A DNA stretch of 32,000 bases from Ignisphaera sp. (GCA_038735125.1 JAVYNU010000007.1:60546-92545); one strand, 5' to 3'. Counted from the first letter of the stretch, positions 7,742 to 24,723 are shown. Numbers and translations: made by a program. The notes: generated from the letters alone by a model not told the origin.

Positions 7742-8302
7742 TTACCGTATTAGAATAGATTCTAAATCGTTTATGCTTCTAATTAGTTCTTCATGTTTTC
7801 CATGGCCTATTCTTTCCTCTTCTATTCTCTCAAATTCTTCAACTAACTCTCTATCTGTGTCATAATCTAGTACCTGTGTTGCTAGTTGGAATAGAATGTT
7901 ATCTTCTTTGAAAATGTGATTTCTCAGAAGGTTGATGTAGCCATAGGCATTTTCTACAATATCTTGTAGAGCACTAGCATCGCCTGAATAGAATTTTTCT
8001 ATGCTATCCTCAAGATTTTTTATATACCTTCTGCCCATATCATGCTCATATAGCATAACGCCTATAGGGCCGCCCTCTTTTGGAATTCCCAATCTTTCTA
8101 ATGTCGGGAAGAAGGCGCTCTCCTCTTTTCCATGGTGACACCTATCAGCAAATAGTTTGAAGAATGTGATTAAGGTTTCAAAGACTTTTCTATCAACATT
8201 TTTCCCTTGCTGTAATTTAATTACCGAATTTTCAAGCAACTGCAAGGCCTTCTCTATAACTCTATGGTCATTCATGAGGAGCTCTATAGACCTCAAATTC
8301 AT
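7742..8302 (-). CDS. hemerythrin-like (HHE cation-binding) domain protein
   Basis: LMNDHRVIEKAL, DRCHHGKEE, MLYEHDMGRRY and NHIFKEDNILF: the His/Glu ligand pattern of hemerythrin-like domains. Confidence 0.8.
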   Translation of the reverse strand: MNLRSIELLMNDHRVIEKALQLLENSVIKLQQGKNVDRKVFETLITFFKLFADRCHHGKEESAFFPTLERLGIPKEGGPIGVMLYEHDMGRRYIKNLEDSIEKFYSGDASALQDIVENAYGYINLLRNHIFKEDNILFQLATQVLDYDTDRELVEEFERIEEERIGHGKHEELIRSINDLESILIR

Positions 8303-8435
8303 CTCCCATATTGTCTATCTCTACAAAAACACTTTTATGTTTTGCCTTCATAACAATCTGGAACAACAAAACAAAACAGTGTTACAACATTCAGATTTAA
8401 AAGGTGGTAAAGAATAACACGAAACTATGTAAAGG

Positions 8436-9629
8436 GTGTACCAGATGGCTAGAGCCGTTCTGATAGATGATGGCGTTTGGTGGGTTGGGGCAAGAGACAT
8501 TAGTAGAAGAATCTTCGATTCCATCATACCTCTGCCTAAGGGTACATCATATAACTCATATCTTGTTGTTGGTAAGGAAAAGATTGTGTTGATAGACACC
8601 GTCAATCCTGGATTTGAGAGTGAGTTGGAGGAAAGAATTTCTTCTGTTGTTAAACCATCAGATATAGATTACGTTGTTATGAATCATGCTGAGCCAGATC
8701 ATGCTGGGGCTATTCCACATATACTCAGAATCTCTCCCAAGGCAAAGCTTGTGACAACGGCTGTGGGAGCTAAGATGGCCAAGATCTTCTATGGTGTTCC
8801 AAATGATAGAGTATATGTTGTTAGGGACGGCGATACAATAGATCTGGGAGGTAAGACCCTAAAGTTCATAGAGGCTCCCATGCTTCACTGGCCAGAAACA
8901 ATGTTTACGTACTTAGAAGAGAATAAGATACTATTCACATGTGATTTCTTTGGGGCTCACATAGCCCAGGGTCTGTGGGATGATGAGGTAGAGGATTTGA
9001 TATACCACGCACAAAGGTACTTTGGAGAAATAATGATGCCCTTTAGAGTTAATGCTTTGAATGCATTGAAGAAAATAGCTGGTCTTGATATAAGAGTTAT
9101 TGCCCCTTCTCATGGACCCATATACAGAAATCCGAGGAAAATCATTGAGAGTTATTATAGCTGGGTAGAGGGAAGAACAAAGAGGAAAGCTGTTGTACTA
9201 TATGTATCAATGTGGGGCTACACTGAAAACATCGTCAAAACATTTGCTGATGATCTTAGAGCCGAAGGAATAGATGTTGTTCTACATAATTTAGCGGTAG
9301 CAGATTTAGGCGATGTAGCGAAAGATCTTGTAGACTCTCGTGCAATTGTATTAGCAACACCAACAGTTGTGCTAAATGCACATCCACTAGCAGCACTAGC
9401 GGCTTATCTAGCTAAAATACTGAAACCCCCTGCAAAGTACCTAGCACTAATAGTTCTATATGCTTGGGGTACACAAGCAGAAAGACAATTACAAGAAATA
9501 GCGAGAGATCTTAAGGCAGAGCTTATAGGAATGGTAAAAATTAATGTGACGCCTTCCAAGGAAGATATAGAGAATTTAAGAGGTTTAGCAAAAGAACTTT
9601 CAAAAAGGTTGAAAGCAGAGCCAGAATAA
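8436..9629 (+). CDS. fprA: flavodiiron protein (FprA-type O2/NO reductase)
   Basis: Metallo-beta-lactamase-like diiron motif NHAEPDHAG, then HWPETMFTY, DFFGAH, and a C-terminal flavodoxin-like domain (VVLYVSMWGYTENIV). GTG start at 8436, or ATG at 8445. Confidence 0.9.
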   Translation: MYQMARAVLIDDGVWWVGARDISRRIFDSIIPLPKGTSYNSYLVVGKEKIVLIDTVNPGFESELEERISSVVKPSDIDYVVMNHAEPDHAGAIPHILRISPKAKLVTTAVGAKMAKIFYGVPNDRVYVVRDGDTIDLGGKTLKFIEAPMLHWPETMFTYLEENKILFTCDFFGAHIAQGLWDDEVEDLIYHAQRYFGEIMMPFRVNALNALKKIAGLDIRVIAPSHGPIYRNPRKIIESYYSWVEGRTKRKAVVLYVSMWGYTENIVKTFADDLRAEGIDVVLHNLAVADLGDVAKDLVDSRAIVLATPTVVLNAHPLAALAAYLAKILKPPAKYLALIVLYAWGTQAERQLQEIARDLKAELIGMVKINVTPSKEDIENLRGLAKELSKRLKAEPE

Positions 9630-10099: not shown

Positions 10100-12511
10100 C
10101 TACTTTAAGAGTCTTAGTGAGTTTAGCACTACGCTGGCATCACTTAAAACCATTGCTACAGCTCCTAGCTCTGGCTTTATGAAGATGCCGTAGCTATAGA
10201 GCGCTCCAGCTGCTATTGGAAGCAATATCGTGTTGTATATAAGTGCCCAGAAGATGTTTTCAAGGAATTTTCTTCTAACCTTTTTGCTAAACTCTATCAG
10301 GAAGACTATATCTGTTAGCCTGTTGCTTGTTATAATCACATCTCCAGCCTCCTTAGAGATGTCGGCTCCACTACCCATAGCTACACCGATATTTGCGGCT
10401 GAAATTGCAGCTGCATCATTTATTCCATCGCCTACATAGAGAACTTTTTCTCCATTCAACTGAAGCTTCTTAACAACATCTACTTTATCAAGGGGTTTGA
10501 GCTTGTAGTAGTAAAAGTCTATCTTGAGCATCTCTGCATAATGTTTAACAGCTTCTTGAACATCGCCACTGGCAATACCGATTCTCAGACCCAGACTCTT
10601 CAAATAACTGACCACTTTGGCGGCTTCCGGTCTGAGGCTATCGGAAATCTCTATAACTGCAACAGGTCTCCCCTCTACTGCCACTATAACTGGTGTTCCA
10701 CCTCTTTCACCAATTTCTTTTAAAAGCTTTTCAATGTTATTCGACAACTCAATGCCCATTCTATCCATAAGCTCAGCATTTCCCATAGCCACAGTAATGC
10801 CATTGACCCTGCCCACAACCCCAAGCCCTGGGAAATGCTCAAATTCTTCAACTTGTCTTAGCTCAACGCCTTTCTCGTTGCAGTAATTCGCTATGGCTTT
10901 GGCTATTGGATGTTCGCTTCTAGACTCTATGCTACACACATAAGAGAGTATAGCATCTGCACCAGGATTTCCATCTAGAAACACAATTTCTTTCACAGCT
11001 GGCGAGCCAATGGTCAGAGTCCCTGTTTTGTCGAATAGCACAACAGAGGTTTCAAGAACTCTGTCAAACACATCTCCACGTCTAATTACAATTCCTTTTC
11101 TTGCAGTGGCTAGAACAGCTATTGAAACAGCCATTGGGATTGCGATTCCTATTGCACAGGGGCATGCAGTTGCAAAAACTGCTGCAACGAAGAGTATGGC
11201 CTTTGACACATCTCCCACGTATATAGACCAGTACAACGCTGTGGCGATGCCAAGGCCTATGACAACCCAGGTAAAGTATCCGACTATCTTATCTGCAAGC
11301 CTAACTATTCTAGGCTTGTAGAATTGGGCTTCTCTAATAGTCTCAACTATTCTGTAGAGAATTGTCTCATTACCCACTCTCGTTGCTCTAACCCTTAGAT
11401 AGCCAGATACAAGCTTGCTTCCAGCTAAGACGGGGTCTCTTGTCGAAGCCTTTTTGTGTATAGGCATTGGCTCTCCGGTAAAACTAGATTCATCGACATA
11501 TCCCTCCCCCTCGACAACGACGCCATCTACAGGCACAATCTCTCCAGCTCTAATCTCTACAATAGCTCCAAGAGGGACCCTATCCGCGTTAACCTCAACA
11601 ACATTTTCGTTGGAGACTATCCTTGCTTTGCTGTAAAGCCTCTTTACATGCTCTTCAACATCTCTCCAAGCCCTTCTCCTAACCCTCTCTTCAAGATAGA
11701 GACCCAGACCAACAAAACCCAGAACACCTGCAGAAGCCTCGAAGAATGATGACACATGTATTTCATTGCCAAGGGAAATAGTGTTGGATAGAGACAAAAC
11801 TCCAAAAAGAAATGATATTGTCGAGGAGAGAGCCACAAAAGAATCCATTGTTGGCGCAAGCTTTAGCAACGATTTATAGCCTCTGAAAATAATATCATGG
11901 CTCAGTATAATGATTATCACAGAAGCTGTTGCTAGGAAATAGACATAGCTGTCTATATGGAGACCGGTGAACATGGATAGGATAGCGAAAAGCACAACTG
12001 AGAGTCCTATGGCAAATGATGTGAGTCTTCTAACAAGAAGCCTATGTTCACCTTCCCCAGTCCCAGACCTAGCTTCCTCTGATATATGCTCAAACTCTAT
12101 GCCAAGCCCAAGAAGAATTTTCTCCATGTCTTGCTGAGCTATGGTCAGAGGATTGTAGATCACCTTGATCATGGATGTAGAGACAGAGGCTCTGCATTCG
12201 AAAACCCCTCTAGCTCTACTCAGCTTCTCCTCAACAACCCTAGCCAAATTGGCATCGAGATCCTCTACAGAAAATACTGCAACCTCTTTAACAACATCGT
12301 ATCCAGAGTCTCTAACAGCCTTGTATATATCGCCTAGACTACATCCAGAATCATCGTATTCTATTAGAGCTTCGCCAGAGGATATATCTACACTGAAATT
12401 GCTTACACATCCGAGCTTCGCCAACTCCCTGTTAATCGAGTATACGCAGCTAGGACAGTCAACACCAATTAGTCTAAGTCTCTCTCTAACCACAGCCATG
12501 GCTATAGACAC
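10100..12511 (-). CDS. copA: copper-translocating P1B-type ATPase
   Basis: N-terminal HMA domain with CPSC, TM6 CPC (ATACPCAIGIA), DKTGTLT phosphorylation site, SEHP, GDGINDAAA, and YN...P in TM7. Confidence 0.95.
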   Translation of the reverse strand: MSIAMAVVRERLRLIGVDCPSCVYSINRELAKLGCVSNFSVDISSGEALIEYDDSGCSLGDIYKAVRDSGYDVVKEVAVFSVEDLDANLARVVEEKLSRARGVFECRASVSTSMIKVIYNPLTIAQQDMEKILLGLGIEFEHISEEARSGTGEGEHRLLVRRLTSFAIGLSVVLFAILSMFTGLHIDSYVYFLATASVIIIILSHDIIFRGYKSLLKLAPTMDSFVALSSTISFLFGVLSLSNTISLGNEIHVSSFFEASAGVLGFVGLGLYLEERVRRRAWRDVEEHVKRLYSKARIVSNENVVEVNADRVPLGAIVEIRAGEIVPVDGVVVEGEGYVDESSFTGEPMPIHKKASTRDPVLAGSKLVSGYLRVRATRVGNETILYRIVETIREAQFYKPRIVRLADKIVGYFTWVVIGLGIATALYWSIYVGDVSKAILFVAAVFATACPCAIGIAIPMAVSIAVLATARKGIVIRRGDVFDRVLETSVVLFDKTGTLTIGSPAVKEIVFLDGNPGADAILSYVCSIESRSEHPIAKAIANYCNEKGVELRQVEEFEHFPGLGVVGRVNGITVAMGNAELMDRMGIELSNNIEKLLKEIGERGGTPVIVAVEGRPVAVIEISDSLRPEAAKVVSYLKSLGLRIGIASGDVQEAVKHYAEMLKIDFYYYKLKPLDKVDVVKKLQLNGEKVLYVGDGINDAAAISAANIGVAMGSGADISKEAGDVIITSNRLTDIVFLIEFSKKVRRKFLENIFWALIYNTILLPIAAGALYSYGIFIKPELGAVAMVLSDASVVLNSLRLLK

Positions 12512-12729: not shown

Positions 12730-12845
12730 AGCAGATTAAATATTTGCTCGATATAAACTCCTATACTAAGTTTATTTATCTAGTGTTTATTAAACCGCTT
12801 ATAACAAGTTTATTTAGCATTGGATACAAAAATCATGGGGTTTTT

Positions 12846-13682
12846 ATGAGCATAACCAACCTGAATTGGGTTGGAGATGCAATAGACAGGCTTAGAAGCA
12901 AGAAGCCTTTGGTTCACAACATCACTAATTTCGTTGTTATGAACACAACTGCTAATGCTCTCTTAGCTTTAGGTGCATCACCAATCATGTCCCACGGCAT
13001 CGAGGATCTAGATGATCTTGTGCCTGCTGCAGATGCTATTGTGATAAATATTGGTACTATTGATGAGGAATTCGCTTATTCCATGCTTAAAGCTATCCAG
13101 CTTGCAAAGATGTACAAAAAGCCTGTTGTTCTAGACCCTGTAGGGGCTGGCGCAACTAGGTTTAGAACCAGAATTGCTCTATCACTACTTGAAAACAGTG
13201 GTATAAGCGTTGTTAAGGGTAATTTTGGCGAGATTTTGGGTCTGTTGGGAGAGTATGGCAAGACTAGAGGTGTTGATGCAGCCTCATATGATAGGAGTAT
13301 TGCTTCTGAAGCTGTTTTGCAGACCTCGAAAAAATTCAGCTGTGTTGTTGGTTTGACAGGTTACACGGATTTTGTTAGCGATGGTGTCAATGTTTATGAG
13401 GTGAGGCTTAGGGTAGAGTCTCAAAACCTCGAAAAAGTGATTCACAGAGTCACAGGTTTGGGGTGTATTGTATCAGCTTTGATAGGAGCGTTTCTAGCAA
13501 TAGAAAATCCTTTGAAAGCTACTATAGCTGGGTTGGCCACATTCAAAGCTGTTTCCTACAAGGCCTCTGAAGAGACTCCCTATCCAGGCTCATTCCATGT
13601 CAAGCTATATGACTGGCTCTATAGAATTGATGGAGATATCGTTAGAGATGTTGTTGAGGTGAGAGAGGTTGGGTCTAACTGA
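12846..13682 (+). CDS. thiM: hydroxyethylthiazole kinase
   Basis: PLVHNITNFVVMNTTANALLALGASPIMSH and VKGNFGEI are ThiM hallmarks. I chose the ATG at 12846; the ORF-track extension from 12744 is hydrophobic junk. Confidence 0.9.
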   Translation: MSITNLNWVGDAIDRLRSKKPLVHNITNFVVMNTTANALLALGASPIMSHGIEDLDDLVPAADAIVINIGTIDEEFAYSMLKAIQLAKMYKKPVVLDPVGAGATRFRTRIALSLLENSGISVVKGNFGEILGLLGEYGKTRGVDAASYDRSIASEAVLQTSKKFSCVVGLTGYTDFVSDGVNVYEVRLRVESQNLEKVIHRVTGLGCIVSALIGAFLAIENPLKATIAGLATFKAVSYKASEETPYPGSFHVKLYDWLYRIDGDIVRDVVEVREVGSN

Positions 13683-14313
13683 GAAACTCAGACTTCTTGT
13701 TATAACAGATAAAAGGTTGAAGCCAAATGTTGTAAAATCTGTTGAAGAAGCATTGAAAGGTGGTGCAACATCTATTCAGCTTAGATTAAAAGAGTCGTCA
13801 ACACGTGAAATGGTGGAGATAGGTAGGGAGGTTAGGAGGCTAACTAGAGATTACGGAGCTCTATACTTTGTCGATGATAGGGTAGACGTTGCATTGGCCA
13901 CGAACGCTGATGGCGTTCAGCTAGGCCCTGAGGACATGCCTATTAGGATAGCCCGAGAAATAGCTCCAAACCTACTCATCGGGGCCTCTGTATATAGTGT
14001 TGAAGAGGCTTTAGAGGCCGAAAGAGAGGGTGCACACTTCTTAGGAGCTGGATCGGTGTACTCAACACCATCAAAACCAGATGCGAGAGTTATTGGATTA
14101 GAGGGTCTACGGAAAATAGTTGAGAGTGTGAGCATACCTGTTGTTGCCATAGGGGGTATAAACAAGGATAATGTTAGAGAGGTTCTTGAATCAGGTGTTG
14201 TGGGAGTAGCTGTTATATCGGCTGTTATGGCTGCTGAAGATGTTTATAGGGCCACCTTAGAACTTAGAAAAATTGTAGACGAGGTGCTAAGACCAAGTGG
14301 GCAAACTAGATGA
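13669..14313 (+). CDS. thiE: thiamine-phosphate synthase
   Basis: LLVITD, GATSIQLRLKE, ADGVQLGPEDMP, GASV, PVVAIGGI: the ThiE TIM-barrel motifs. Overlaps the thiM 3' end by 14 nt. Confidence 0.9.
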   Translation: MGLTEKLRLLVITDKRLKPNVVKSVEEALKGGATSIQLRLKESSTREMVEIGREVRRLTRDYGALYFVDDRVDVALATNADGVQLGPEDMPIRIAREIAPNLLIGASVYSVEEALEAEREGAHFLGAGSVYSTPSKPDARVIGLEGLRKIVESVSIPVVAIGGINKDNVREVLESGVVGVAVISAVMAAEDVYRATLELRKIVDEVLRPSGQTR

Positions 14314-15262
14314 AATCGTCAAGAAACTGGCTAGAGGGGCTAAGAGGCATCCTAGATCTCTCCTCACATGGTTTGATGATGCAGGGGCTGTAGAAATAAA
14401 TGGGAGATACTTTGTTGTGAAAGCCGATGGTTTTGCCTCTTCCAGGGCTCTCTATCCCTGGTGTAGCTATAGAGATTTTGGTTTTAGAGGTGTTGCGGGG
14501 GCTGTCAGCGATGTTATTGCCAAGGGGTGTAGACCATATGTATATGCCATCTCAATTGGTGTTAAGCCTGAAAACGTTGATTTTATAGAAGATATTATTA
14601 AGGGTGTTGAGGAAGCTGTCGACATATTTGGGGGCTATATAGAGAATATAGATACAAATATCGGTTACGACGACTGGATAGACGTTTTTGTCTTGGGGGA
14701 ATGCCTCTACTATCCTCTTCCAAGAGGGGCAAGGGAGCTAAGCAAGGTTATTTTGCCTAGGAGAGTAGGGCTATCTGTGATGGCATATATGGAGTATGTC
14801 GAGAAGAGAACACCTAGCATCGACGAGGTACGCAAATTCAGTTGTAGACCCATGCCATATACGCGGATAGTTGATGCAATAGAGTTTAGCAGAACAGGTT
14901 TAGAGGGCTCTATAGATATTAGCGACACATTTGCGGAGGCACTTCAGCAGCTAAGTGAAGTCAGTGGGACGGGTGTATACATACAGGAGAGCCCCTCTAG
15001 AATTTTGCACCCACTAGCAATTGAATACGTCAAGAGGGTGGGTTTAGACCTGCAACTAGCTGTTTTGGCGTCCAACGAAGAGTACATACCTCTCTTAATA
15101 GTGAAACCAGGATACGAAGAAGAGGTTCTAGATGTGTTGAAGAGCATAAGTTTAGAACCTGTGGTGATAGGCACCATAACATTGAAGCAAGACTTGATGT
15201 GGATGGGTAGGGTAATGCCAAAGGTGGTGTGGGACTATATCCAAGGTGCAGTAACCATATGA
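14297..15262 (+). CDS. thiL: thiamine-monophosphate kinase-like PurM-superfamily protein
   Basis: FDDAGAV, VVKADGF, VSDVIAKGCRP and FGGYIENIDTN match the AIR-synthase-related N-domain pattern. Overlaps thiE by 17 nt (GTG start). The function is assigned mainly from operon context. Confidence 0.6.
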   Translation: MGKLDEIVKKLARGAKRHPRSLLTWFDDAGAVEINGRYFVVKADGFASSRALYPWCSYRDFGFRGVAGAVSDVIAKGCRPYVYAISIGVKPENVDFIEDIIKGVEEAVDIFGGYIENIDTNIGYDDWIDVFVLGECLYYPLPRGARELSKVILPRRVGLSVMAYMEYVEKRTPSIDEVRKFSCRPMPYTRIVDAIEFSRTGLEGSIDISDTFAEALQQLSEVSGTGVYIQESPSRILHPLAIEYVKRVGLDLQLAVLASNEEYIPLLIVKPGYEEEVLDVLKSISLEPVVIGTITLKQDLMWMGRVMPKVVWDYIQGAVTI

Positions 15263-15339: not shown

Positions 15340-16368
15340 TCATTTGATGCTATCTATTATTTCTTTGTACAGCTTTAGAGCTTGGTCCGCGTCTGTTGTT
15401 CCCTTTACAAATACTTTTCCATTACGTAATATCATTACCTCGAAGCCGCTTACCACACCATAAGCCACAGCACCATCATATATCCTCAGATTCTTAATAA
15501 GATTGGATTTTGTCAGCTTTTCTAAATCTAGCTCTGCACGGCTTTCAGATACTATTTTAACTGCTCTTGCCCCACACATAGGCTTTACATTTTTGCCTCC
15601 TTTGAATAGGTAATCAAATCGCTTGTAAACACATGTAGGACAAGAACTATTTCTCCTTACATAAGCTCTTTCAATTGCTGCACTATATGCATCGACCACA
15701 TATAGGTGCTCATCCACATAACCCTCGGTCAAATATTTTATTGCGATAGATAGTGCCACTGATACTGTTAAATCTACAGCTATTGGCGTCACACCAAAAA
15801 TTTCACATGCATTTTCTCTCGCTCTAGCTCTTGGAATAAAGCACTTTAGACAAGCTGTTTTCTCTGGCACAACAAGCTTTACATTTCCATACCATCTCTC
15901 AACACCAATCATAACCCAGGGTTTGCCAAGATTCACACACGCTTCGTTTATCAGGTACCTAGTATCCATATTGTCAGTGCCATCTATAACGAGATCTACA
16001 TCTCTGATAAAATTCTGGATATTATCAGCATCAACATCATCTACAATAGCCTCAACCTCAACACCACTGTTAATCTCCTTTAAACGGTTTCTACATGCAA
16101 TAGCCTTGGGCACCCTCCCAAAAGCATCCTCTTCTCTAAACAGACGTGTTCTATGGAGATTGCTTACCTCAACAACATCCCTATCAACAACTCTGATAAA
16201 ACCGGCACCAGCCCTGGCAAGAACTTCAGCCACGCTACTGCCTGTAGCACCGCAGCCGATGATGGCTATTCTGGACTCGGCTAATTTAAGCTGCTTTTTG
16301 ATTCCTAGAACAAGTATCTGTCTCGAATATCTCTCAATAAAGTCTGCAACATCTATTCCCCTATTCAT
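15340..16368 (-). CDS. E1-like ThiF/MoeB/HesA-family adenylyltransferase with an extra C-terminal domain of about 90 aa
   Basis: YSRQILV, nucleotide loop IIGCGATGSSVAEVLARAG, DRDVVEVSNLHRTRLF, two CxxC pairs (CLKC, CPTC), and a conserved Cys in NACEIFGVTP. The C-terminal extension (…EVMILRNGKVFVKGTTDADQALKLYKEII) is not rhodanese-like. Confidence 0.85.
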   Translation of the reverse strand: MNRGIDVADFIERYSRQILVLGIKKQLKLAESRIAIIGCGATGSSVAEVLARAGAGFIRVVDRDVVEVSNLHRTRLFREEDAFGRVPKAIACRNRLKEINSGVEVEAIVDDVDADNIQNFIRDVDLVIDGTDNMDTRYLINEACVNLGKPWVMIGVERWYGNVKLVVPEKTACLKCFIPRARARENACEIFGVTPIAVDLTVSVALSIAIKYLTEGYVDEHLYVVDAYSAAIERAYVRRNSSCPTCVYKRFDYLFKGGKNVKPMCGARAVKIVSESRAELDLEKLTKSNLIKNLRIYDGAVAYGVVSGFEVMILRNGKVFVKGTTDADQALKLYKEIIDSIK

Positions 16369-16501: not shown

Positions 16502-16729
16502 TTAGAATTCCGCTGTTTTTCTAAGCCTTACTTCGTAGTACTTATCTTTTTCATTTACATCAATTGTTCCAATGCCAAATGCCTCAACAGATTCTCTAAT
16601 CATATCGACACAGAGCTTTGATGTTGTTAGCACAACTATTTCCTCTCCTCTGCGCACCTTGGAGAATTCTCTAATGGTCTTGACCAGTGGTTGCGGACAC
16701 TCTTCGCCTCTAAAGTCTAGCACCTTCAT
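16502..16729 (-). CDS. tusA: TusA/SirA-family sulfur-carrier protein
   Basis: 75 aa with LDFRGEECPQPLVK (the CPxP active-site motif). The ATG lies 4 nt after the stop of the upstream acylphosphatase-like gene. Confidence 0.85.
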   Translation of the reverse strand: MKVLDFRGEECPQPLVKTIREFSKVRRGEEIVVLTTSKLCVDMIRESVEAFGIGTIDVNEKDKYYEVRLRKTAEF

Positions 16730-16733
16730 TTGC

Positions 16734-17045
16734 TTAAAGCCCTTCCTCGCCAGCGCATTTAATGATCATGAAGTCCGTGTACAGCCCCTTATATTCGTGT
16801 TCTACCACATCAACTCGATTAATGGTGTATACCCTATTCTGGAGTACTCTGTCTATCAGTTCACGTATTTCACTGTCTATGCCTTCAACATATATCTCAA
16901 CACAGTCGCTATTAGGTATATTCATTATAAAACCTCTTAACCCAAGCATCTTTGCTATTCTCCAAATATATCTTCTAAACCCAACACCTTTAACTTCTCC
17001 ACAAATAGTAATTGAAGATGCTTTGAGCATCTCCCTCACCCTCAA
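16734..17045 (-). CDS. acylphosphatase-like domain protein
   Basis: ICGEVKGVGFRRYIWRIAKMLGLRGFIMNIPNSDCVEIYVEG matches the V-x-G-x-V-Q-G-V-G-F-R ... G-x-V-x-N signature. The catalytic Arg and Asn equivalents are both present. The TTG at 17045 overlaps the upstream stop; an alternative ATG lies at 17030. Confidence 0.75.
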   Translation of the reverse strand: MRVREMLKASSITICGEVKGVGFRRYIWRIAKMLGLRGFIMNIPNSDCVEIYVEGIDSEIRELIDRVLQNRVYTINRVDVVEHEYKGLYTDFMIIKCAGEEGL

Positions 17046-18451
17046 ACCAACTTAAATTGTGAAAGAATCTTTTTATCAGCAACAAACTTTTCCAGTGATT
17101 TCGGTGCTTCGACCTCCGGCTCACCCAAATCTACAACCTCGCCTATTACAGCTGGTTCTAGTCCCCGAGACTTCAGATCCCTAACTATATCCTCAGATAT
17201 TTCGCTAGGTGCGATAATTATGAAGGGCCCATTAGTTCCACTTGTAGCATTTGGAATCACATACAGCTTTGTTGCTATCTCCGATATCTCTGGGTATAGG
17301 AGAGGTACTGAGTATAGTCTTATCTTACTATTTGTTCTCTCTGCAAGCTCTTTAACAACAAAAATACCAGGTCCTGTGACGTCTGTTGTAACTGCTATGT
17401 GTTCATCTGGTTTGTATTCCTCTTTACTGGGTGGCAGATATTTGTACACAACCTCTGCAGCATGTATATTGGGTTTAGATATGAGTTCCACAACACTATC
17501 TTTTATTTTCTCTATATATTTCACATCTATGCCTTGTTTCTCTAGGTCTTTAACAAGGCTCTCATCTATTACACAGGATAGGTATAGGTTCAGTGGGGCT
17601 AGCTCTCCCATAGGCCTTGTTATGATGAGCTTCATACCCTTCTTGACCTTATCTTCAAATAGTGGCGGAGCTCTATCTGTGTAGCCAATAACAGTTGCTC
17701 CCATTAGTAGCCTCCCCTTCTTTGGCTGTATCACATCGATTATTTTGATGCCATATTGTTTTGAGTAAAGGTCTACATTCTTTAATAGCTTTCCTAAAAG
17801 TTCTTCTGTAGGAGCATTTACCACCGGTGCAATTCTTAGATCCTTGTACACACCTAAGACGAATATGTCGTTAAGTGCATTACTCAAAGCTCCGCTAACC
17901 TGCTTAAAGTCTCCAGGCTCTTGAGATGGATCTATAATATGAATTGTATCATTGTTAATAGCTGTAAAGCCCTCTAGTTTAGTTGATGGAGATATGAAAT
18001 CAAAAAGTGCAAACTCGTCTTCTGGAAACGGAGTTATAATTGAGTGTCCCTTTCCAACTACTATCTCTAAACCGCTTTTGGCAAGCCCTCTGTATACAGG
18101 CAAAACTCTGTTGATGAATCCCTCTGGAGAATCTGCATATCTCTGATACACTTGGACAACAGTAACAGAATAAAGCTTTTTATGTCTTTTCAAACTATTC
18201 TCCACATCGATATCAACTCCAAGAGGGTATATAGACCTATGAACCTCATCAGCACAGCCAGGCAAAACTAGGGCATCTTCTCTAGGTGCTATGAAAAACC
18301 TAGAGTTTTTAAGTTCATCCCTAATAGTCTTTAAGGCAGGGTAGACAACCCTTAGAAGATCAACCTTAACAGCACAGCCAGTTGCAAGCGCAAGCGGATT
18401 TAAGCCAAGTTTCTTATAATACTCAACTCTCTTGATAATCTCTTCAAACAT
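17042..18451 (-). CDS. SelD-like (selenophosphate-synthetase family, PurM superfamily) protein with internal expansion
   Basis: By-eye alignment to E. coli SelD gives these matches:
- N-terminal loop ATGCAVKV versus GAGCGCKI (Cys and Lys conserved).
- EDALV versus DDAAV.
- NALNDIFVLG versus NAISDIFAMG.
- KLIITRPMG versus KLFLTKPLG.
- TTDVTGPGI versus MTDVTGFGL.
- AVIGEVV versus TAIGELV.
I chose the ATG at 18451 because TAGGTGGCTTATG places a GGTG Shine-Dalgarno-like element 5-8 nt upstream. The ORF-track TTG is at 18478. Confidence 0.7.
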   Translation of the reverse strand: MFEEIIKRVEYYKKLGLNPLALATGCAVKVDLLRVVYPALKTIRDELKNSRFFIAPREDALVLPGCADEVHRSIYPLGVDIDVENSLKRHKKLYSVTVVQVYQRYADSPEGFINRVLPVYRGLAKSGLEIVVGKGHSIITPFPEDEFALFDFISPSTKLEGFTAINNDTIHIIDPSQEPGDFKQVSGALSNALNDIFVLGVYKDLRIAPVVNAPTEELLGKLLKNVDLYSKQYGIKIIDVIQPKKGRLLMGATVIGYTDRAPPLFEDKVKKGMKLIITRPMGELAPLNLYLSCVIDESLVKDLEKQGIDVKYIEKIKDSVVELISKPNIHAAEVVYKYLPPSKEEYKPDEHIAVTTDVTGPGIFVVKELAERTNSKIRLYSVPLLYPEISEIATKLYVIPNATSGTNGPFIIIAPSEISEDIVRDLKSRGLEPAVIGEVVDLGEPEVEAPKSLEKFVADKKILSQFKLV

Positions 18452-18458
18452 AAGCCAC

Positions 18459-18710
18459 CTACCTCTTCTTCTTAACAACTATTCTCCAAACACCTCTATC
18501 GATATTCTCAACACCTAGTACCTCATGACCATCGGCTTCAACAGCTTTTGGCACGTTCTCACAAGATGGCGGATTATCAGTTATAACCTCTAAGACATCG
18601 CCGGGATTGATCTGTGAAAGAGCTTTTCTAGTATATATGACTGGATATGGACATACAAACCCTCTGACATCAAGTACATACTTATTGTCGCCAATCTTTG
18701 CAAATCTCAA
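18459..18710 (-). CDS. tusA: TusA/SirA-family sulfur-carrier protein
   Basis: 83 aa with LDVRGFVCPYPVIYTRKAL (CPxP motif). TTG start. The stop lies 7 nt before the ATG of the SelD-like gene. Confidence 0.85.
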   Translation of the reverse strand: MRFAKIGDNKYVLDVRGFVCPYPVIYTRKALSQINPGDVLEVITDNPPSCENVPKAVEADGHEVLGVENIDRGVWRIVVKKKR

Positions 18711-18738: not shown

Positions 18739-18838
18739 ATGTATGAATATATAAGTATTGCGAATTTGAATGCATAAAAAGTTGGATGGATTGTGTTAAA
18801 AGCAATATTCTTAATTTACATTAACAATCCTTATTATA

Positions 18839-18853
18839 TTAACAGTGTTATAG
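18839..18853. promoter_or_regulatory. second copy of the palindromic motif (TTAACAGTGTTATAG) upstream of yeeE
   Basis: 13 of 15 positions are identical to the 18724-18738 part of the first site. It lies 9-23 nt upstream of the ATG at 18862. Confidence 0.4.
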
Positions 18854-18861
18854 GTGATATA

Positions 18862-20109
18862 ATGGTCGATCACACTATAAATGACAGGGCAAATACTAAA
18901 GACGTTATCAGCTTTAAGAAGTATTTGGAGAGCAACTATTTTAGAAAGGTTTTCGGATCAGATGGATGGCCTATTGTGGTAGCAGGTATTTTAATAGGTT
19001 TAATAAATGTTGTATCATATGTATGGGTTAAGAAGCCTTTTACTGTGTATACAGGGTTTCTAAACTGGGGGCAGCACATATATAGCTTACTAGGCTTGAG
19101 CAGTCTAGCGGATACGCCTAAGACCTCGCCTCTTCTAGACCCTACAAGTGCTGGCGATATAGGGGCTATTTTAGGTGCTATGATAGCTGCTATACTATCT
19201 AATGAATTCCGTTTACGGGGGGTAGATAGACTAGGAGTTATTGAGAGTATTGTTGGGGGTGTTTTAATGGCTCTGGGAGTTTCAATGTCGTTTGGATGCA
19301 ACTGGGGAGGCTTTTTATCTGCTATAACATCTTGGAGTCTACATGGATATGCATTCCTATTAGGAGCCTTAGCAGGTGGCTATCTAGGACAAAGATATGT
19401 GCTGTGGAGAGCTGAGAAAACATTTAGACTAGAATCAAAAGTTGATCTCTCGATAGGCTCCGGCTATGAGAGAAAGCGTGAAGCTGGCCAATATGGCGTA
19501 TTGTTGGTTATACCACTAACAATAATAATTTTAGCATCTATTTACTACGCCTATATGAAAAGCTATATGATTGGTGGATTACTAATAGGCGTAACCATGG
19601 GCATGATACTACAGAGAGCAAGATTCTGCTTTGCAACAGCATTTAGGGATTTGTTTGGTGGCCCAGAGGCTCTAAGGGCAATCAACATTCATAAGGGAAT
19701 TGCTGTAGCAATGCTTGTAGGGGCTACGGGTGTTTTTGCACTAAAATACATGGGTTTGGCTGATATATGGATACTTGTCTCACCTGTTTATATAACTAAT
19801 GTGATTGGAGGAGCCATATTTATATTTGGAGCTATTATGGTTGGTGGTTGTGCATCGGGAATTCTATGGCGTATAGGCGAAGGCCATTTGAAAGCACTGA
19901 TAGGATTGATATCAACAGTTTTAGCATATCCAATGTTTGTCAATATTATTAGCAAGCGCTTAGTTACATACCCAAGAATCTTTATGCCAGGTGCGGTTGG
20001 CTGGATTGCTGCATATGCAATATTCATAATATTCATATCTATATATCTAATGCTTCTTCTCTATCAAGAGTATAGACTGCAGAGAGAAAGGGGCTTGTCA
20101 CAACGCTAA
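18862..20109 (+). CDS. yeeE: YeeE/YedE-family (TsuA-like) sulfur/selenium-compound transporter
   Basis: Polytopic membrane protein with the family's conserved Cys motifs (SFGCNWGG, RARFCFATAFRD, VGGCASGILWR). I chose the ATG at 18862, preceded by AGGTGA. The ORF track starts at 18793. Confidence 0.85.
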   Translation: MVDHTINDRANTKDVISFKKYLESNYFRKVFGSDGWPIVVAGILIGLINVVSYVWVKKPFTVYTGFLNWGQHIYSLLGLSSLADTPKTSPLLDPTSAGDIGAILGAMIAAILSNEFRLRGVDRLGVIESIVGGVLMALGVSMSFGCNWGGFLSAITSWSLHGYAFLLGALAGGYLGQRYVLWRAEKTFRLESKVDLSIGSGYERKREAGQYGVLLVIPLTIIILASIYYAYMKSYMIGGLLIGVTMGMILQRARFCFATAFRDLFGGPEALRAINIHKGIAVAMLVGATGVFALKYMGLADIWILVSPVYITNVIGGAIFIFGAIMVGGCASGILWRIGEGHLKALIGLISTVLAYPMFVNIISKRLVTYPRIFMPGAVGWIAAYAIFIIFISIYLMLLLYQEYRLQRERGLSQR

Positions 20110-21393: not shown

Positions 21394-22578
21394 CTAGCTT
21401 ATATATCTAGATAACTGCTCTACATACTTAAAGCCGTGGTCTGGGAATATGAGGATGTAGTCACCTTCATCAAGAGCCCCCCTTTCTACAAGTTTTCTAT
21501 AGGCCATGTATACAGCCCCACTACTCAGCCCTATCAATATTCCATCTCTTCTAGCAACTTCTATAACGCCCTTGGCAGCCTCGTCAGGTTTAATATCTAT
21601 TACACCATCTATTTCCACATGGTGTACCCACTTCATACCGCTTTCAATTCTTCTAATGCCTTGGATGGCAGTCCCCTCTGCAGGTACAACACCATAGACC
21701 TTAACCCCGCTGAATCTGTTTTTGAAGTATAGGGCTATGGCTGACATGTGTCCAGATGTGCCTAAGCCCCCTATTATGGCCTTGGGCTTTATCCCAGCCT
21801 CTCTTATTTGAATCTCAAGCTCTTTAGCTGTATACCTTAAGTGAACCTCGAAGTTTGCATCGTTGTAAAACTGGTTTAGGTGTATAGCACCCTCAGTTTT
21901 TGCGACAGCCTCGACTTCGTCTATGAGATCTACTGTCAACGGTTTTGGTGATCTAACAACTTCTGCACCAAAGATTTTTAGAAGAAGTTCTCCCGTTAGA
22001 GAAACTGTTGAGGGTATATATGCTCTAAGCTTAGAGTTGTGGATATTAGACATAGCAGCTATAGCAAGCCCTGTATTTGTTGATGTGGACTCCACCAAAA
22101 GACCTAGCTGAAAACTGCCAAGTCTCTCAGCAGCCTTTCTATACATATACCATCCAATCCTATCCTTAACACTCATACTCCAAGGGTTAAAGCCTTCCAG
22201 CTTAGCCCACACAATCCTGCCGTCAACGGAAGATCTTGGCAACCTTACCAAAGGTGTTGGCCAATTTCTATACAAAAGCTCTTCAGTATCAGCAAAAACT
22301 CTGTACCTACTCGGATTAATTTCATCGAAAAAGCCCAGCCTTTCAAGAGGGACAAACGTGTTTTCTGCAGAGCCACGTGATACAGATATGTATTTAACCC
22401 CCAGTTTCTTTAAAGCAGCGCATAGCTTAGCATTTTCAACAACCCTTCCACTATCTACATCAATGGCTACTGTTTTGTCGACACCACCCTTTCTAAGAAT
22501 CTCGCTTACAATAGCTATAAACTCTTCGAGCTCTAGTCTATCGCTGCAAACCACTTTACCAATATCTTCTAGATACAC
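21394..22578 (-). CDS. cysteine synthase family PLP enzyme, long archaeal O-phosphoserine sulfhydrylase-like form with an extra N-terminal domain
   Basis: PLP-lysine motif NPWSMSVKDRIG, TSTNTG, GLGTSGHMSA and GLSSGA identify the fold-type II Trp-synthase-beta family. At 394 aa it carries a roughly 90-aa N-terminal extension. GTG start. Confidence 0.85.
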   Translation of the reverse strand: MYLEDIGKVVCSDRLELEEFIAIVSEILRKGGVDKTVAIDVDSGRVVENAKLCAALKKLGVKYISVSRGSAENTFVPLERLGFFDEINPSRYRVFADTEELLYRNWPTPLVRLPRSSVDGRIVWAKLEGFNPWSMSVKDRIGWYMYRKAAERLGSFQLGLLVESTSTNTGLAIAAMSNIHNSKLRAYIPSTVSLTGELLLKIFGAEVVRSPKPLTVDLIDEVEAVAKTEGAIHLNQFYNDANFEVHLRYTAKELEIQIREAGIKPKAIIGGLGTSGHMSAIALYFKNRFSGVKVYGVVPAEGTAIQGIRRIESGMKWVHHVEIDGVIDIKPDEAAKGVIEVARRDGILIGLSSGAVYMAYRKLVERGALDEGDYILIFPDHGFKYVEQLSRYIS

Positions 22579-22593
22579 AAATTTTGATCACCA

Positions 22594-22607
22594 ATAACAA
22601 TGTTAAT
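22594..22607. promoter_or_regulatory. third copy of the palindromic motif (ATAACAATGTTAAT) upstream of the cysteine-synthase-like gene
   Basis: The 12-mer ATAACAATGTTA is identical to the core of the 18722-18738 site. It lies 16-29 nt upstream of the GTG start at 22578, in the divergent intergenic region shared with iscU. Confidence 0.45.
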
Positions 22608-22715
22608 GGGCCAGGAATAAAAAGCTTTTCGGCTTAAAAAGCGAAACAAAGGTTTTGGTATAGGCCTTGGGGCTGTCTTCACATAGACAAGCTTTATATT
22701 TCTATTTGTATAAAT

Positions 22716-23252
22716 ATGTTATTGGTGTTTAGATTGAGTAGCAGAATACCCTTGCCATATAGCCCAAAAGTGCTAGAAATATTCAGAAATCCGAGAAATC
22801 TTGGGCCACTAGAAGATGCTAATGTTGTTGAAATGGCTGGTAGCCCTGCATGCGGAGATATGATAAGGCTCTATCTAAAAATTGTTCATAGAGATGATGG
22901 TGACTATATCGAGAAGGCCTCTTTTGAAAGCTATGGATGTGCAGCAAACATCGCTGCTGCTAGTATTTTAACTGAAATGATTATAGGGAAAAAGGTTGAG
23001 GATGCTTGGAAAATATCGTGGAAGCAAATATCTGATGAGCTCGGAGGCCTTCCACCAATAAAATATCACTGCAGCATTCTTGCTGTAGGCGCTTTGAAAA
23101 GAGGTATAAGAGCTTACTATAAACAGCTTGGCTATAACCCACCGTGGCTTCCAAAGGATTTGACTGCTGAGGAGAGGCAGGTTTTAGAGGAAGAGGAGAT
23201 GATGGAGAGATACTATAAAGCGATGAAGGCCTTGAGCGGTGAAAGCCGATGA
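22716..23252 (+). CDS. iscU: IscU/NifU-like Fe-S cluster scaffold
   Basis: YSPKVLEIFRNPRNLG, then the three ligand cysteines in GSPACGDMI, SYGCAANIAAAS and KYHCSILA. It has a C-terminal extension of about 45 aa. The start could instead be one of the downstream TTG/GTG codons (22722-22734). Confidence 0.9.
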   Translation: MLLVFRLSSRIPLPYSPKVLEIFRNPRNLGPLEDANVVEMAGSPACGDMIRLYLKIVHRDDGDYIEKASFESYGCAANIAAASILTEMIIGKKVEDAWKISWKQISDELGGLPPIKYHCSILAVGALKRGIRAYYKQLGYNPPWLPKDLTAEERQVLEEEEMMERYYKAMKALSGESR

Positions 23253-23497
23253 GAGAAATCGATTTGAGATACATCCCAACATCATGCACATCGCATCCAG
23301 TTATAGTCTTAGCCAACACCCTTAAGGATCTGGAGAGAGAAGGTGTTGAAAAATTCAAACTCATTTTCAATGTTGATGACATTCCTGTAAACGCCATAAA
23401 GTTCTTTCTGTCTAAACATGGCTATTGTGTTGAAGAGGAGAGTCCTTTAGACAATAGATCAATGTCTGTTCTAGCCAGTAGATGTGGGAAGAGATGA
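23249..23497 (+). CDS. divergent TusA-like small protein (CPxP replaced by C-T-S-H-P)
   Basis: 82 aa. IDLRYIPTSCTSHPVIVLANTLKDL parallels LDxRGxxCPxPxxxxxxAL of TusA. It has ATGA overlaps with both iscU (23249-23252) and iscS (23494-23497). Confidence 0.5.
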   Translation: MREIDLRYIPTSCTSHPVIVLANTLKDLEREGVEKFKLIFNVDDIPVNAIKFFLSKHGYCVEEESPLDNRSMSVLASRCGKR

Positions 23498-24723
23498 TGT
23501 CTATAGCTCAAAAAGTTAGAGAGCTCTTGAAGTCCCATGGAAGCCCCTCTAAAGAGGTCTACTTTGATTTGGAGAACAGTGGTTTTGTGCCGCAAGAAGT
23601 TGTTGAGGCTATGATACCATATTTTAATAGAATTGGCTATGGACATCCATCAATAACACACAAACCTGGTTGGGAAGCTCTTGAGGTTGTATATGAAGCT
23701 AAGGAGTTGTTGGCCAAGACTATAGGCGCTTCAGATCCAGACGAGATAGTATTTACACATAGCGGTACAGAGGCAAATAACTTAGCCATACTGGGCTATC
23801 TTCTGAAGAATAGGGGTAGAAAGGGTAAGGTTGTTGTATCTGCAATTGAGCATCTAAGCGTTATATTTCCAGCTCAATTCGCTTCAGAGCTATTTGGATT
23901 CAAAACAGTTTTAGTGCCTGTAGACAGCGAGGGCTTTGTTGATCCAGAGCTATTCAAATTGTATGTAGATAAGGAGACTGTTTTTGTCAGTATTCAAATG
24001 GTTAATCATGAGATTGGAACTATACAAAGACTGAAAGAGCTAATCGATATAGCGAAAAGTGTCAACCCCGATATTGTTTTCCACACAGATGCCGCTGATG
24101 CCTATGGGTGGATACCAATAGACGTTAATAAACTTGGGGTGGATATGCTTACAATCAGTAGCCACAAGATTCATGGACCTAGAGGAGTAGGAGCATTGTA
24201 CATTAGAAAAGGAGTAGAGGTTGAGTCCCCTATAAAAGGTCAGCTAAGTGTTGAGAAGAACTGGCCTGGCGTTGAAAATGTTCCGCTTATAGCAGGTTTT
24301 AAGAAAGCCGTTGAGATAATGTTTAGCAACTTCAATTATAGAGTTGAATATGTTAAAAAACTTAGAGACAAGCTTATAAAGGGAATAATATCGTCTGTAC
24401 CCCATACAATAGTCAACGGACCTATAAACGAGTATAGAGTTGCTAACAACGCCAACATAAGCTTTCTGTACATAGAGGGAGAAGCTCTAACAGTTGAGCT
24501 AAGCCTACGCGGAGTCTATGTATCTAGCGGAAGTGCATGTTCAAGTAGAGTCTTAGAGCCAAGTCACGTTCTACTAGCTATTGGAAGAAAGCATGAGGAG
24601 GCACACGGGAGTATACTGTTCAAGGTATCACACTACCACAGAGAAGAGGATGTAGATTACGCATTAGAGGTCATACCAAAAGCTGTTGAAAGACTTAGAA
24701 AAATGAGTGCATGGAAACAGTAA
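23494..24723 (+). CDS. iscS: cysteine desulfurase (class V aminotransferase, NifS/IscS-like)
   Basis: FTHSGTEANN, HTDAADA, the PLP lysine in SSHKIHGPRG, and the active-site loop SSGSACSS. I chose the start at 23494 (ATGA overlap); the ORF track gives 23482. Confidence 0.9.
   Translation: MMSIAQKVRELLKSHGSPSKEVYFDLENSGFVPQEVVEAMIPYFNRIGYGHPSITHKPGWEALEVVYEAKELLAKTIGASDPDEIVFTHSGTEANNLAILGYLLKNRGRKGKVVVSAIEHLSVIFPAQFASELFGFKTVLVPVDSEGFVDPELFKLYVDKETVFVSIQMVNHEIGTIQRLKELIDIAKSVNPDIVFHTDAADAYGWIPIDVNKLGVDMLTISSHKIHGPRGVGALYIRKGVEVESPIKGQLSVEKNWPGVENVPLIAGFKKAVEIMFSNFNYRVEYVKKLRDKLIKGIISSVPHTIVNGPINEYRVANNANISFLYIEGEALTVELSLRGVYVSSGSACSSRVLEPSHVLLAIGRKHEEAHGSILFKVSHYHREEDVDYALEVIPKAVERLRKMSAWKQ

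Follow-up and report, generated by a model that had tools for sequence, protein, structure and literature searches.

The question raised by this locus is whether a SelD-like enzyme holds, within a single chain, a second copy of its PurM-type N-terminal domain (N-domain). The gene lies on a 32,000-nucleotide (nt) stretch of DNA from Ignisphaera sp. (GCA_038735125.1, JAVYNU010000007.1:60546-92545), called the window below, with positions counted from its first letter. A first reading of the sequence alone (the original prediction) had described a SelD-type enzyme with a Cys-x-x-Lys loop, enlarged by about 100 residues that were taken for a partial duplication of the N-domain, which could form a pseudo-dimer in one chain. 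We found the extra segment to be a family-wide unit with near-invariant residues of its own, for which structural models suggest the fold of a PurM-type N-domain.

Family identity of the gene

The SelD-like coding sequence is a single open reading frame (ORF) at 17042-18451 on the minus strand, giving 469 amino acids and a stop codon from the ATG at 18451. NCBI starts the gene upstream of this ATG, at an in-frame TTG (18478), for a 478-residue form. An identical protein (100%) is on record from an Ignisphaera sp. metagenome-assembled genome (MAG) under the name "SelD-related putative sulfur metabolism protein", which many of the more than 290 homologs also carry. The gene is, with near certainty, a member of the SelD-related family of that name (NCBIfam NF038049, SelD_rel_HyperS): the protein scored 612.1 bits against a cutoff of 250, and the match covered residues 4-467 and profile positions 2-464 of 465. 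The hidden Markov models (HMMs) of true SelD remained below their cutoffs (TIGR00476, 30.9 vs 125 bits; PRK14105, 44.9 vs 291 bits) and both matched only residues 177-444, while the hypE model TIGR02124 scored 27.8 against a cutoff of 251.6. By family identity, the product is a predicted PurM-superfamily, ATP-using enzyme. The family has had a name since 2014 and is part of NCBI's annotation pipeline; the gene is one of its ordinary orthologs, and its detection is no novelty.

Single-sequence searches detected little of this relationship. Pfam, run on the whole protein and on pieces of it, returned no domain except AIRS at E 0.11 on the canonical segment, and phmmer against PDB returned only a chance ATPase match (E 0.35). 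A profile of 115 family sequences recovered human SPS1 in PDB at E 1.8e-8, together with E. coli SelD, Leishmania SEPHS2 and HypE. These profile alignments begin only at the NxLND helix, at about residue 186.

Match to SelD outside the insert

As references we used 10 canonical SelDs of 317-390 amino acids, taken from the cluster-representative search and verified with NCBIfam. When residues 66-159 were removed from the family profile, hhalign aligned the remainder with these SelDs at a probability of 99.75 (E 3e-27) over 307 colinear columns. The alignment pairs GCAVKV with GCSCKL, REDALV with GEDAAF, and NNDTIHIIDP with the TTDFF..PIVDDP block. Because GCAVKV is paired with GCSCKL, the Cys26-x-x-Lys29 loop corresponds to the SelD catalytic loop. 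It lies in a glycine-rich mobile segment, LATGCAVKVD (18359..18388), in which Cys26 and Lys29 are the equivalents of SelD Cys17 and Lys20. The following strand, b0 (REDALV, 18260..18283), carries Asp59, the counterpart of Asp51 in the DDAAV motif of SelD, an assignment drawn from hhalign, conservation and coevolution.

The canonical AIRS-type N-domain core spans residues 160-278 (17618..17974) and includes NNDT with D168, NxLND with N191, N194 and D195, a degenerate GGHS site at 236-243, and GAT. It is followed by an AIRS_C-type C-domain (residues 279-469, 17045..17617) with RPxGEL, TDVTGPG (D357) and NxTxGTNG. Like all the elements of the protein, both are encoded on the minus strand. The PDB profile search paired NALNDIFVLG with NAISDIFAMG and TTDVTGPGI with MTDVTGFGL. 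The five metal/ATP ligands (D59, D168, N191, D195 and D357) are in place and, together with C26 and K29, are 89-99% conserved in 182 full-length sequences (C26 99%, K29 96%, D59 92% with a further 4% Glu, D168 96%, D195 97%, D357 98%). N194 is conserved in 96% of them, and the family shows little or no variation in the DX4G ATP motif (D195-x4-G200).

An AlphaFold2 model of the full protein, built from an alignment of 115 sequences, reached a predicted local distance difference test score (pLDDT) of 92.6 and a predicted template modelling score (pTM) of 0.92. The only stretch modelled as disordered, and the only segment with pLDDT below 50, is residues 24-26 of the Cys loop, which fits the flexible loop of SelD. 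Searched against PDB with Foldseek, the model matched SelD structures best (3u0o, 3fd5, 5l16, 2zod and 2yye, E about 1e-16, 14-18% identity), followed by ThiL, HypE and PurM, so that the superfamily matches ranged from E 1e-16 to 1e-10. The template modelling (TM) score to SelD structures was 0.64-0.72 on the target but fell to about 0.5 when normalised on the query, which leaves roughly a third of the SelD-like protein as extra relative to SelD.

Extent and conservation of the insert

The extra part is a single block, here called N′ (residues 66-159, 17975..18256). It separates D59 from N191 by 132 residues, compared with about 36 between D51 and N87 of E. coli SelD, and in the hhalign alignment it falls exactly between the first two strands of the SelD-type N-domain, that is, between the DDAAV-type and the TTD-type strand. 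Modelling and conservation describe it as a β-α-β-α-β-β unit with R72, Q100, Q103, Y120, a GKGHSI motif and D151 as its marked residues. The insert was present in all 182 diverse full-length relatives. Its key residues (R72 99%, K134 97%, H136 97%, D/E151 100%) are as invariant as the catalytic set.

The GKGHSI motif (18038..18055), identified by translation, by 97% conservation and by a profile match, holds K134 and H136 and lies on insert strand 3. The canonical GGHS site, by comparison, has decayed. Residues 236-243 read IIDVIQP where SelD has GGH(S/T), departing from the GG(H/Q)(S/T) motif, and no residue at these positions exceeds 48% in the 182 homologs except P243, at the end, with 66%. 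GKGHSI in the insert is thus near-invariant while the canonical site is not kept.

A family profile scan of 1.84 billion cluster representatives gave 213 matches. Dozens of these are full-length proteins, down to 23% identity, that span the N-terminus and the insert, whereas SelD-sized proteins match only from profile position 191 or so onwards. No intermediate lacking the insert was found among the 213. Two distant full-length relatives that have lost key residues look like degenerate or re-purposed paralogs, as judged from their motifs. One (P0141) has GCSNEID in the loop (Lys29 replaced by Glu), SISMAAVV for GKGHS and ATSTV for NNDT; the other (P0132) has GCSVELD, IGRLHAV and VNCET.

On these points the original prediction was largely right. 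The SelD-type enzyme with its Cys-x-x-Lys loop is recovered by the insert-deleted alignment, the motif matches it had listed (EDALV, NALNDIFVLG and TTDVTGPGI) all align to SelD under profile methods, and the structural model has SelD as its best fold in PDB. The extra segment of about 100 residues and the degenerate canonical GGHS, set against GKGHSI in the insert, were also as described.

Fold and origin of the insert

Residues 64-162 modelled alone formed a self-folding β-α-β-α-β-β unit (pLDDT 91, pTM 0.80), with β(4-12), a short helix, β(29-39), α(46-62), β(66-77) and β(84-92). Among the top 50 Foldseek matches to PDB, 38 belong to the PurM superfamily (HypE, ThiL, PurM, SelD/SEPHS1) and the other 12 to FtsZ/TubZ. 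The best were HypE 2i6r (E 2.3e-3), SelD 2yye (TM-score on the query 0.51) and 2zod (63 columns, rmsd 3.4 Å). In SCOP, the N-terminal domain of PurM and the C-terminal domain of tubulin/FtsZ share one fold, termed "Bacillus chorismate mutase-like", with the order β-α-β-α-β(2). This shared fold would explain the two groups of matches and would point to the N-domain as the part matched. In the predicted topology GKGHS opens insert strand 3 after helix 2, which is exactly the place of GGHS in SelD. From these matches the insert appears to resemble a whole additional N-domain core, its first helix shortened, rather than part of one, set in tandem immediately ahead of the canonical core. We consider it likely that the insert has a PurM-N-like fold, on the strength of the models.

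Sequence comparison gave a much weaker signal. GKGHS is the only one of the parent motifs that the insert appears to keep, and its match to GGHS is the single local match of the insert to the SelD profile; the best local match in both the SelD-profile hhalign and the pairwise test sets VGKGHSIITPFP against V(G)GGH(S/T)I..P of SelD. In the pairwise test the insert scored 33 against residues 83-181 of E. coli SelD, compared with 23.8±4.2 for shuffles (p = 0.04), and the match spans only 14 residues, IVVGKGHSIITPFP on the insert side. The proposed resemblance of the insert to a later SelD segment therefore amounts to this short pairwise match. Comparisons of the insert with the C-domain, and of the N-terminus with the canonical domain, gave hhalign probabilities below 1%. 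In fused proteins, acylphosphatase gave weak phmmer sub-matches to the region of the insert; these had negative scores and were discarded as spurious.

Several results weigh against reading the insert as a second N-domain. The HMM-HMM comparison of the insert with the protein's own canonical N-domain returned a hhalign probability of 0.3%, which is no sequence support, and that with the SelD profile reached only 1-1.4% (P 0.04-0.05). None of 44 insert fragments matched Pfam AIRS at E <= 10, and a profile of 44 insert sequences recovered no PurM-family chain from PDB. The structural matches are themselves marginal (E 2e-3 to 2e-2, none at 1e-3; TM-scores on the query 0.35-0.51, rmsd 4-7 Å), the Foldseek output names no matched domain within the hit chains, and the FtsZ matches mean that the fold is not unique to the PurM superfamily. 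The sequence evidence for a duplication of the N-domain is not significant. What survives of the predicted partial duplication is its fold-level part, seen in the model and there as a whole core. Taking both kinds of evidence together, we lean towards an origin of the insert by duplication, as an ancient tandem copy of the N-domain.

Packing of the insert

Coevolution was explored by mean-field direct coupling analysis (DCA) at an effective number of sequences (Neff) of 137. Ladder-type smoothing of the map was too noisy for strand registers, and we used strand blocks ranked as percentiles of random blocks. Control blocks of the canonical fold ranked at the 99.7th (b0-cB1), 99.5th (cB2-cB3) and 98.5th (cB2-cB4) percentile. 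Among the 16 blocks formed by insert and canonical strands, the top four were iB1-cB4 (0.97), iB1-cB3 (0.96), iB3-cB1 (0.94) and iB4-cB1 (0.935), with the other 12 at 0.76 or below. Each unit thus has its strand 1 coupled to strands 3 and 4 of its counterpart, a pseudo-two-fold pattern that resembles the SelD dimer interface and is suggestive only. The end residues of the insert (66 and 159) also couple, as expected for an inserted domain, and helix 32-46 behind the Cys loop (H2) couples with the insert helix through the pairs 43-117, 44-116 and 39-102.

The structure paper on Leishmania SEPHS2 (LmSEPHS2) describes a dimer formed mainly by β2 and β5 of adjacent monomers (β2-β5′) into an eight-stranded barrel, with the ATP pocket between the two chains and lined by conserved basic residues, and it places position 173 among the residues that bind the ATP phosphates. 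By our own residue count on the PDB chain, position 173 is the Q of GGQT. These data fit an insert in the partner's place, with K134 and H136 acting in cis and the canonical GGHS dispensable. In such an arrangement N′ would pack on the canonical N-domain at the site that the second subunit takes in homodimers of SelD, HypE and PurM, with strand 1 of N′ or N against strands 3 and 4 of the other unit, and each N′-N-C chain would have a single active site, with K134 and H136 of the same chain in its lining.

This placement has to be set against the limits of the analysis. The expected neighbours cB3-cB4 and cB1-cB4 reached only the 16th-30th percentile, which indicates poor DCA sensitivity; the position of the insert comes from low-depth mean-field couplings and not from model coordinates; and the symmetric reading of the blocks was recognised after the fact. 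The proposed single-chain pseudo-dimer agrees with the exploratory DCA pattern, and we regard the chances that the insert takes the partner's place in cis as evenly balanced.

The strongest competitor, which we judge unlikely without dismissing it, takes the insert for a lineage-specific α/β decoration with no kinship to the N-domain, convergent or acquired, on an enzyme that keeps the usual homodimer through its canonical N-domain; such a decoration might serve, for instance, to dock acylphosphatase or TusA. All of the sequence-based homology tests above are negative, as this reading would have them; the fold matches are marginal, with FtsZ/TubZ, an unrelated family, among them, small units of the β-α-β-α-β-β type are a frequent design, and the coupling of H2 with the insert helix could mean a role in loop control or partner binding. 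A mere decoration accords less well with fold matches that fall in only two groups in the top 50, 38 of them in the protein's own superfamily, or with a single best local profile match that sits on the topologically equivalent GGHS strand. Nor does it sit easily with the complementary decay, in which the motif is lost from the canonical copy and kept in the insert, or with the pseudo-two-fold pattern of the four strongest inter-unit blocks. The insert residues are moreover invariant like catalytic ones, which argues for an active-site role and against a peripheral one.

Gene neighbourhood

The SelD-like gene belongs to a row of minus-strand genes. Upstream, a TusA/YedF-like carrier with a CPYP cysteine (18459..18710; Pfam TusA E 5.5e-25) has its stop codon 7 nt before the SelD-like ATG; it scored 66 bits with the YedF model, whose cutoff is 79. 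Downstream, an acylphosphatase gene (16734..17045; Pfam E 6.3e-17) overlaps the SelD-like stop codon by 4 nt. Its product has the GxVxGVGFR and N motifs, with catalytic Arg and Asn intact, and matches the HypF model at E 7.7e-12. A second TusA carrier with a CPQP motif follows (16502..16729; Pfam TusA E 1.7e-16), so that both TusA proteins keep the CPxP cysteine. The row ends with a ThiF/MoeB-type E1 adenylyltransferase (15340..16368; Pfam ThiF E 1.4e-60), directly downstream of the second TusA gene; its 342 amino acids include an extension of about 90 residues past the adenylation domain, with a CPTC motif. On the plus strand, a divergent gene encodes a YedE/YeeE-like membrane transporter for sulfur compounds (18793..20109; Pfam Sulf_transp E 2.5e-39), which scored 122 bits with the YedE/FdhT model, below the cutoff of 350.

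Neighbours were counted over 85 species-level loci. TusA was next to or near the SelD-like gene in 68, acylphosphatase was a separate ORF in 41, and a YedE-like transporter lay within 4 kb in 30. Rhodanese was nearby in 23 and a DsrE-like protein in 9. The association with a ThiF-type E1 is loose (3 of the 85: L010, L011 and L061). The order TusA - SelD-like - acylphosphatase - TusA recurs in loci L005, L039-L041 and L044. In Thermoproteales the SelD-like proteins, of about 577 amino acids, end in a fused acylphosphatase, an arrangement that matches the gene order of the window. Thaumarchaeal loci have the order SelD-like - TusA - TusA - rhodanese, without acylphosphatase. A Sulfolobaceae MAG (L078) has a second, shorter ORF matching the SelD-like family, at 8242-9282 on the minus strand, about 3 kb from the main copy.

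A sulfur-mobilisation cluster lies about 3-5 kb from the SelD-like cassette (21394-24723), with a pyridoxal phosphate (PLP)-dependent enzyme (PALP), NifU-N, an 82-residue ORF and a class-V aminotransferase of the cysteine desulfurase type; the NifU and desulfurase-type genes are at a distance of 4-5 kb. In locus L003 a set of NifU, a small ORF, aminotransferase and TusA stands upstream of the SelD-like cassette, and hemerythrin genes flank it. Hemerythrin is also encoded in the window, with an ODP/flavodoxin protein (flavodiiron-type) and a heavy-metal P-type ATPase with an HMA domain, at 7742-9629 and 10100-12511. No tRNA gene was found in the 32-kb window, and therefore no tRNA-Sec, and SelA, SelB, YbbB, YqeB/YqeC or other selenium-pathway genes were absent from the scanned ORFs.

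A second PurM-superfamily protein is encoded 2 kb away, in a thiM - thiE - thiL-like row at 12744-15262 on the plus strand (hydroxyethylthiazole kinase, TMP synthase and the ThiL-like protein). It matches AIRS and AIRS_C and is below all NCBIfam ThiL cutoffs (88.6 vs 301). It was considered as a partner of the SelD-like protein and dropped; given the thiM-thiE-thiL row, the simplest assignment is a thiamine-phosphate kinase, probably a divergent archaeal one, outside the SelD-like cassette.

Earlier literature and distribution

The family was described by Li, Jiang, Ni, Liu and Zhang (2014, BMC Genomics 15:908, PMC4210487) as "SelD-like", in Sulfolobales and Thermoproteales, with a conserved Cys and the SelD catalytic residues. 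These authors reported the acylphosphatase fusion in Thermoproteales and the SirA(TusA)-like and DsrE-like neighbours. They proposed a thiophosphate product, presented a "Model 1" that invokes an acyl phosphate, and found the lineages concerned to be without any known selenium trait, while stating that a selenium role cannot be excluded. The main text of Li et al. is silent on the insertion; in their supplementary Fig. S1 the block appears, uninterpreted, opposite a gap in SelD. The belief that the architecture had not been described thus holds only for its interpretation, the family having been published and the block being visible in that figure. The same figure pairs Asp68 of E. coli SelD (TTDFF) with D151, inside the insert. 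Our profile-profile alignment pairs Asp68 with D168 of NNDTIHIIDP and not with D151, so the Asp named among the conserved functional residues in the 2014 paper may be the wrong one. Reviews of 2022 and 2026 only repeat the account of Li et al.

Li et al. found the SelD-like family to be absent from Desulfurococcales, and the Ignisphaera host belongs to this group reported as lacking the gene. The family now also occurs in Thaumarchaeota/Nitrososphaerales, Methanomethylicia, MAGs of Halobacteria and Methanobacteriota, and one Acidobacteriota MAG. Full-length copies with 38-45% identity were found in many mesophilic Thaumarchaeota, in some euryarchaeal MAGs and in one bacterial MAG. The distribution of the family goes far beyond what the "hyperthermophile sulfur" label and the 2014 account would lead one to expect. 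The loci in this wider range include those of Thaumarchaeota/Nitrososphaerales (L043, L053, L062-L071, L074 and L079), Acidobacteriota (L055), Methanomethylicia (L006) and Halobacteria (L051-L052).

Proposed function and alternatives

The best explanation overall is a single-chain N′-N-C, ATP-dependent sulfur-activating enzyme, to which we would give an even chance. Judging from its context, the best-supported function is that sulfur, passed on to Cys26 as a persulfide, is activated at the expense of ATP. The flanking TusA carriers, or rhodanese where other genomes have it, would hand sulfane sulfur to Cys26. This sulfur would then be phosphorylated from ATP to a thiophosphate-type product, which corresponds to selenophosphate with sulfur in place of selenium, and the linked acylphosphatase would act on a phosphorylated intermediate or side product. 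Thiophosphate chemistry, adopted by analogy after Li et al., is a tentative assignment that falls somewhat short of even. Literature searches found no experimental work on the SelD-like family, and the conserved acylphosphatase is unexplained by simple SelD-analogue chemistry because a thiophosphate is no acyl phosphate; both points count against the proposed function. The full proposal for the whole family, across Thermoproteota, Thaumarchaeota and some Euryarchaeota, is a single-chain "one-and-a-half" PurM enzyme, in which a degenerate tandem N copy would replace the partner for good and supply the trans His/Lys motif to one active site, the canonical motif would have decayed once it had no use, and TusA sulfur would become a thiophosphate or related S-P compound. 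As a complete package we hold this to be possible and rather doubtful.

The unexplained acylphosphatase keeps an acyl or imino phosphate alternative alive, as in HypE, PurL and PurM. Here a carbonyl oxygen, on a carboxylate or a carrier-bound group, would be phosphorylated to an acyl/imino phosphate, which TusA sulfur would attack to give a thiocarboxylate or related product. Acylphosphatase would bind or proof-read the acyl-phosphate intermediate, and we hold this scheme as a whole to be improbable. The conserved and sometimes fused acylphosphatase, with its catalytic Arg and Asn intact, would find a place in it. HypE works with HypF, an acylphosphatase-domain protein whose model the window's acylphosphatase matches, iminophosphate intermediates are described for the PurM superfamily, Li et al. 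have an acyl phosphate in their "Model 1", and a ThiF-type E1 stands in the same gene row. That E1 is a neighbour in just 3 of the 85 loci, however, and the conserved neighbours include neither a candidate carboxylate substrate nor a ubiquitin-like carrier. The nearest proteins by sequence and fold are moreover SelDs rather than HypE, PurM or PurL, and the SelD-specific Cys/Lys loop is kept.

A genuine selenophosphate synthetase in an unrecognised selenium trait, with YedE-like and YedF/TusA-like proteins importing and carrying selenium, is very improbable: the protein retains the Cys-x-x-Lys loop and every metal ligand of SelD, the best NCBIfam matches of the neighbours are the selenium-linked YedF and YedE/FdhT models, and Li et al. 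leave a selenium role possible, but the SelD models score far below cutoff, as do the YedF and YedE matches below theirs, the window shows no tRNA gene and its scanned ORFs no SelA, SelB or YbbB, the carrier lineages are without known selenium traits according to Li et al., and the neighbours are the general sulfur carriers TusA, rhodanese and DsrE.

Two results are possibly new: the structural reading of the family-wide 94-residue insert as a second PurM-N-type unit with near-invariant Arg, Lys, His and Asp, and the broad phyletic range, which includes many ammonia-oxidising Thaumarchaeota. If the pseudo-dimer in cis is real, it would show cleanly how a partial gene duplication, with complementary motif loss, can replace a subunit. 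It would also give handles on a function that has been open for more than a decade, namely a monomeric state and the residues K134, H136, R72 and C26. A thiophosphate product, if confirmed, would be a new activated-sulfur metabolite and would define a sulfur counterpart of the selenophosphate pathway.

Comparison with known systems

From the family NF038049, as described by Li et al., the Ignisphaera system shows no essential difference: it has the same Cys, Asp, Asn and Lys residues, the TusA (SirA-like) neighbours and the acylphosphatase linkage. Among characterised proteins, SelD/SEPHS (3U0O, 2YYE, 3FD5 and 5L16) is the best match in fold and sequence and is colinear with the SelD-like protein outside the insert. 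The two share the Cys-x-x-Lys loop, four Asp ligands and one Asn ligand, the DX4G motif, and the AIRS and AIRS_C domains. Unlike SelD, the SelD-like protein has a 94-residue extra unit and has lost the canonical GGHS, and it occurs next to sulfur carriers and in hosts for whose lineages Li et al. report no known selenium traits.

HypE and HypF offer a likeness of another kind, a PurM-superfamily enzyme coupled to an acylphosphatase fold and a reactive Cys on a flexible terminal segment, and HypE is the top Foldseek match of the isolated insert. The Cys of HypE is C-terminal, however, and lies in another motif, and the zinc fingers, YrdC and Kae1-like domains of HypF are absent from the SelD-like system.

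The superfamily precedent for a pseudo-dimer within one chain is PurL (FGAM synthetase), an internally duplicated PurM-type module with pseudo-two-fold symmetry and one working site. The DCA pattern suggests that the SelD-like protein may follow the same intrachain logic, a likeness inferred here and not seen directly. In PurL the whole N-C module is duplicated (N-C-N-C) and a second nucleotide site is kept, whereas in the SelD-like protein only an N-type unit would have been added (N′-N-C), with no second C-domain.

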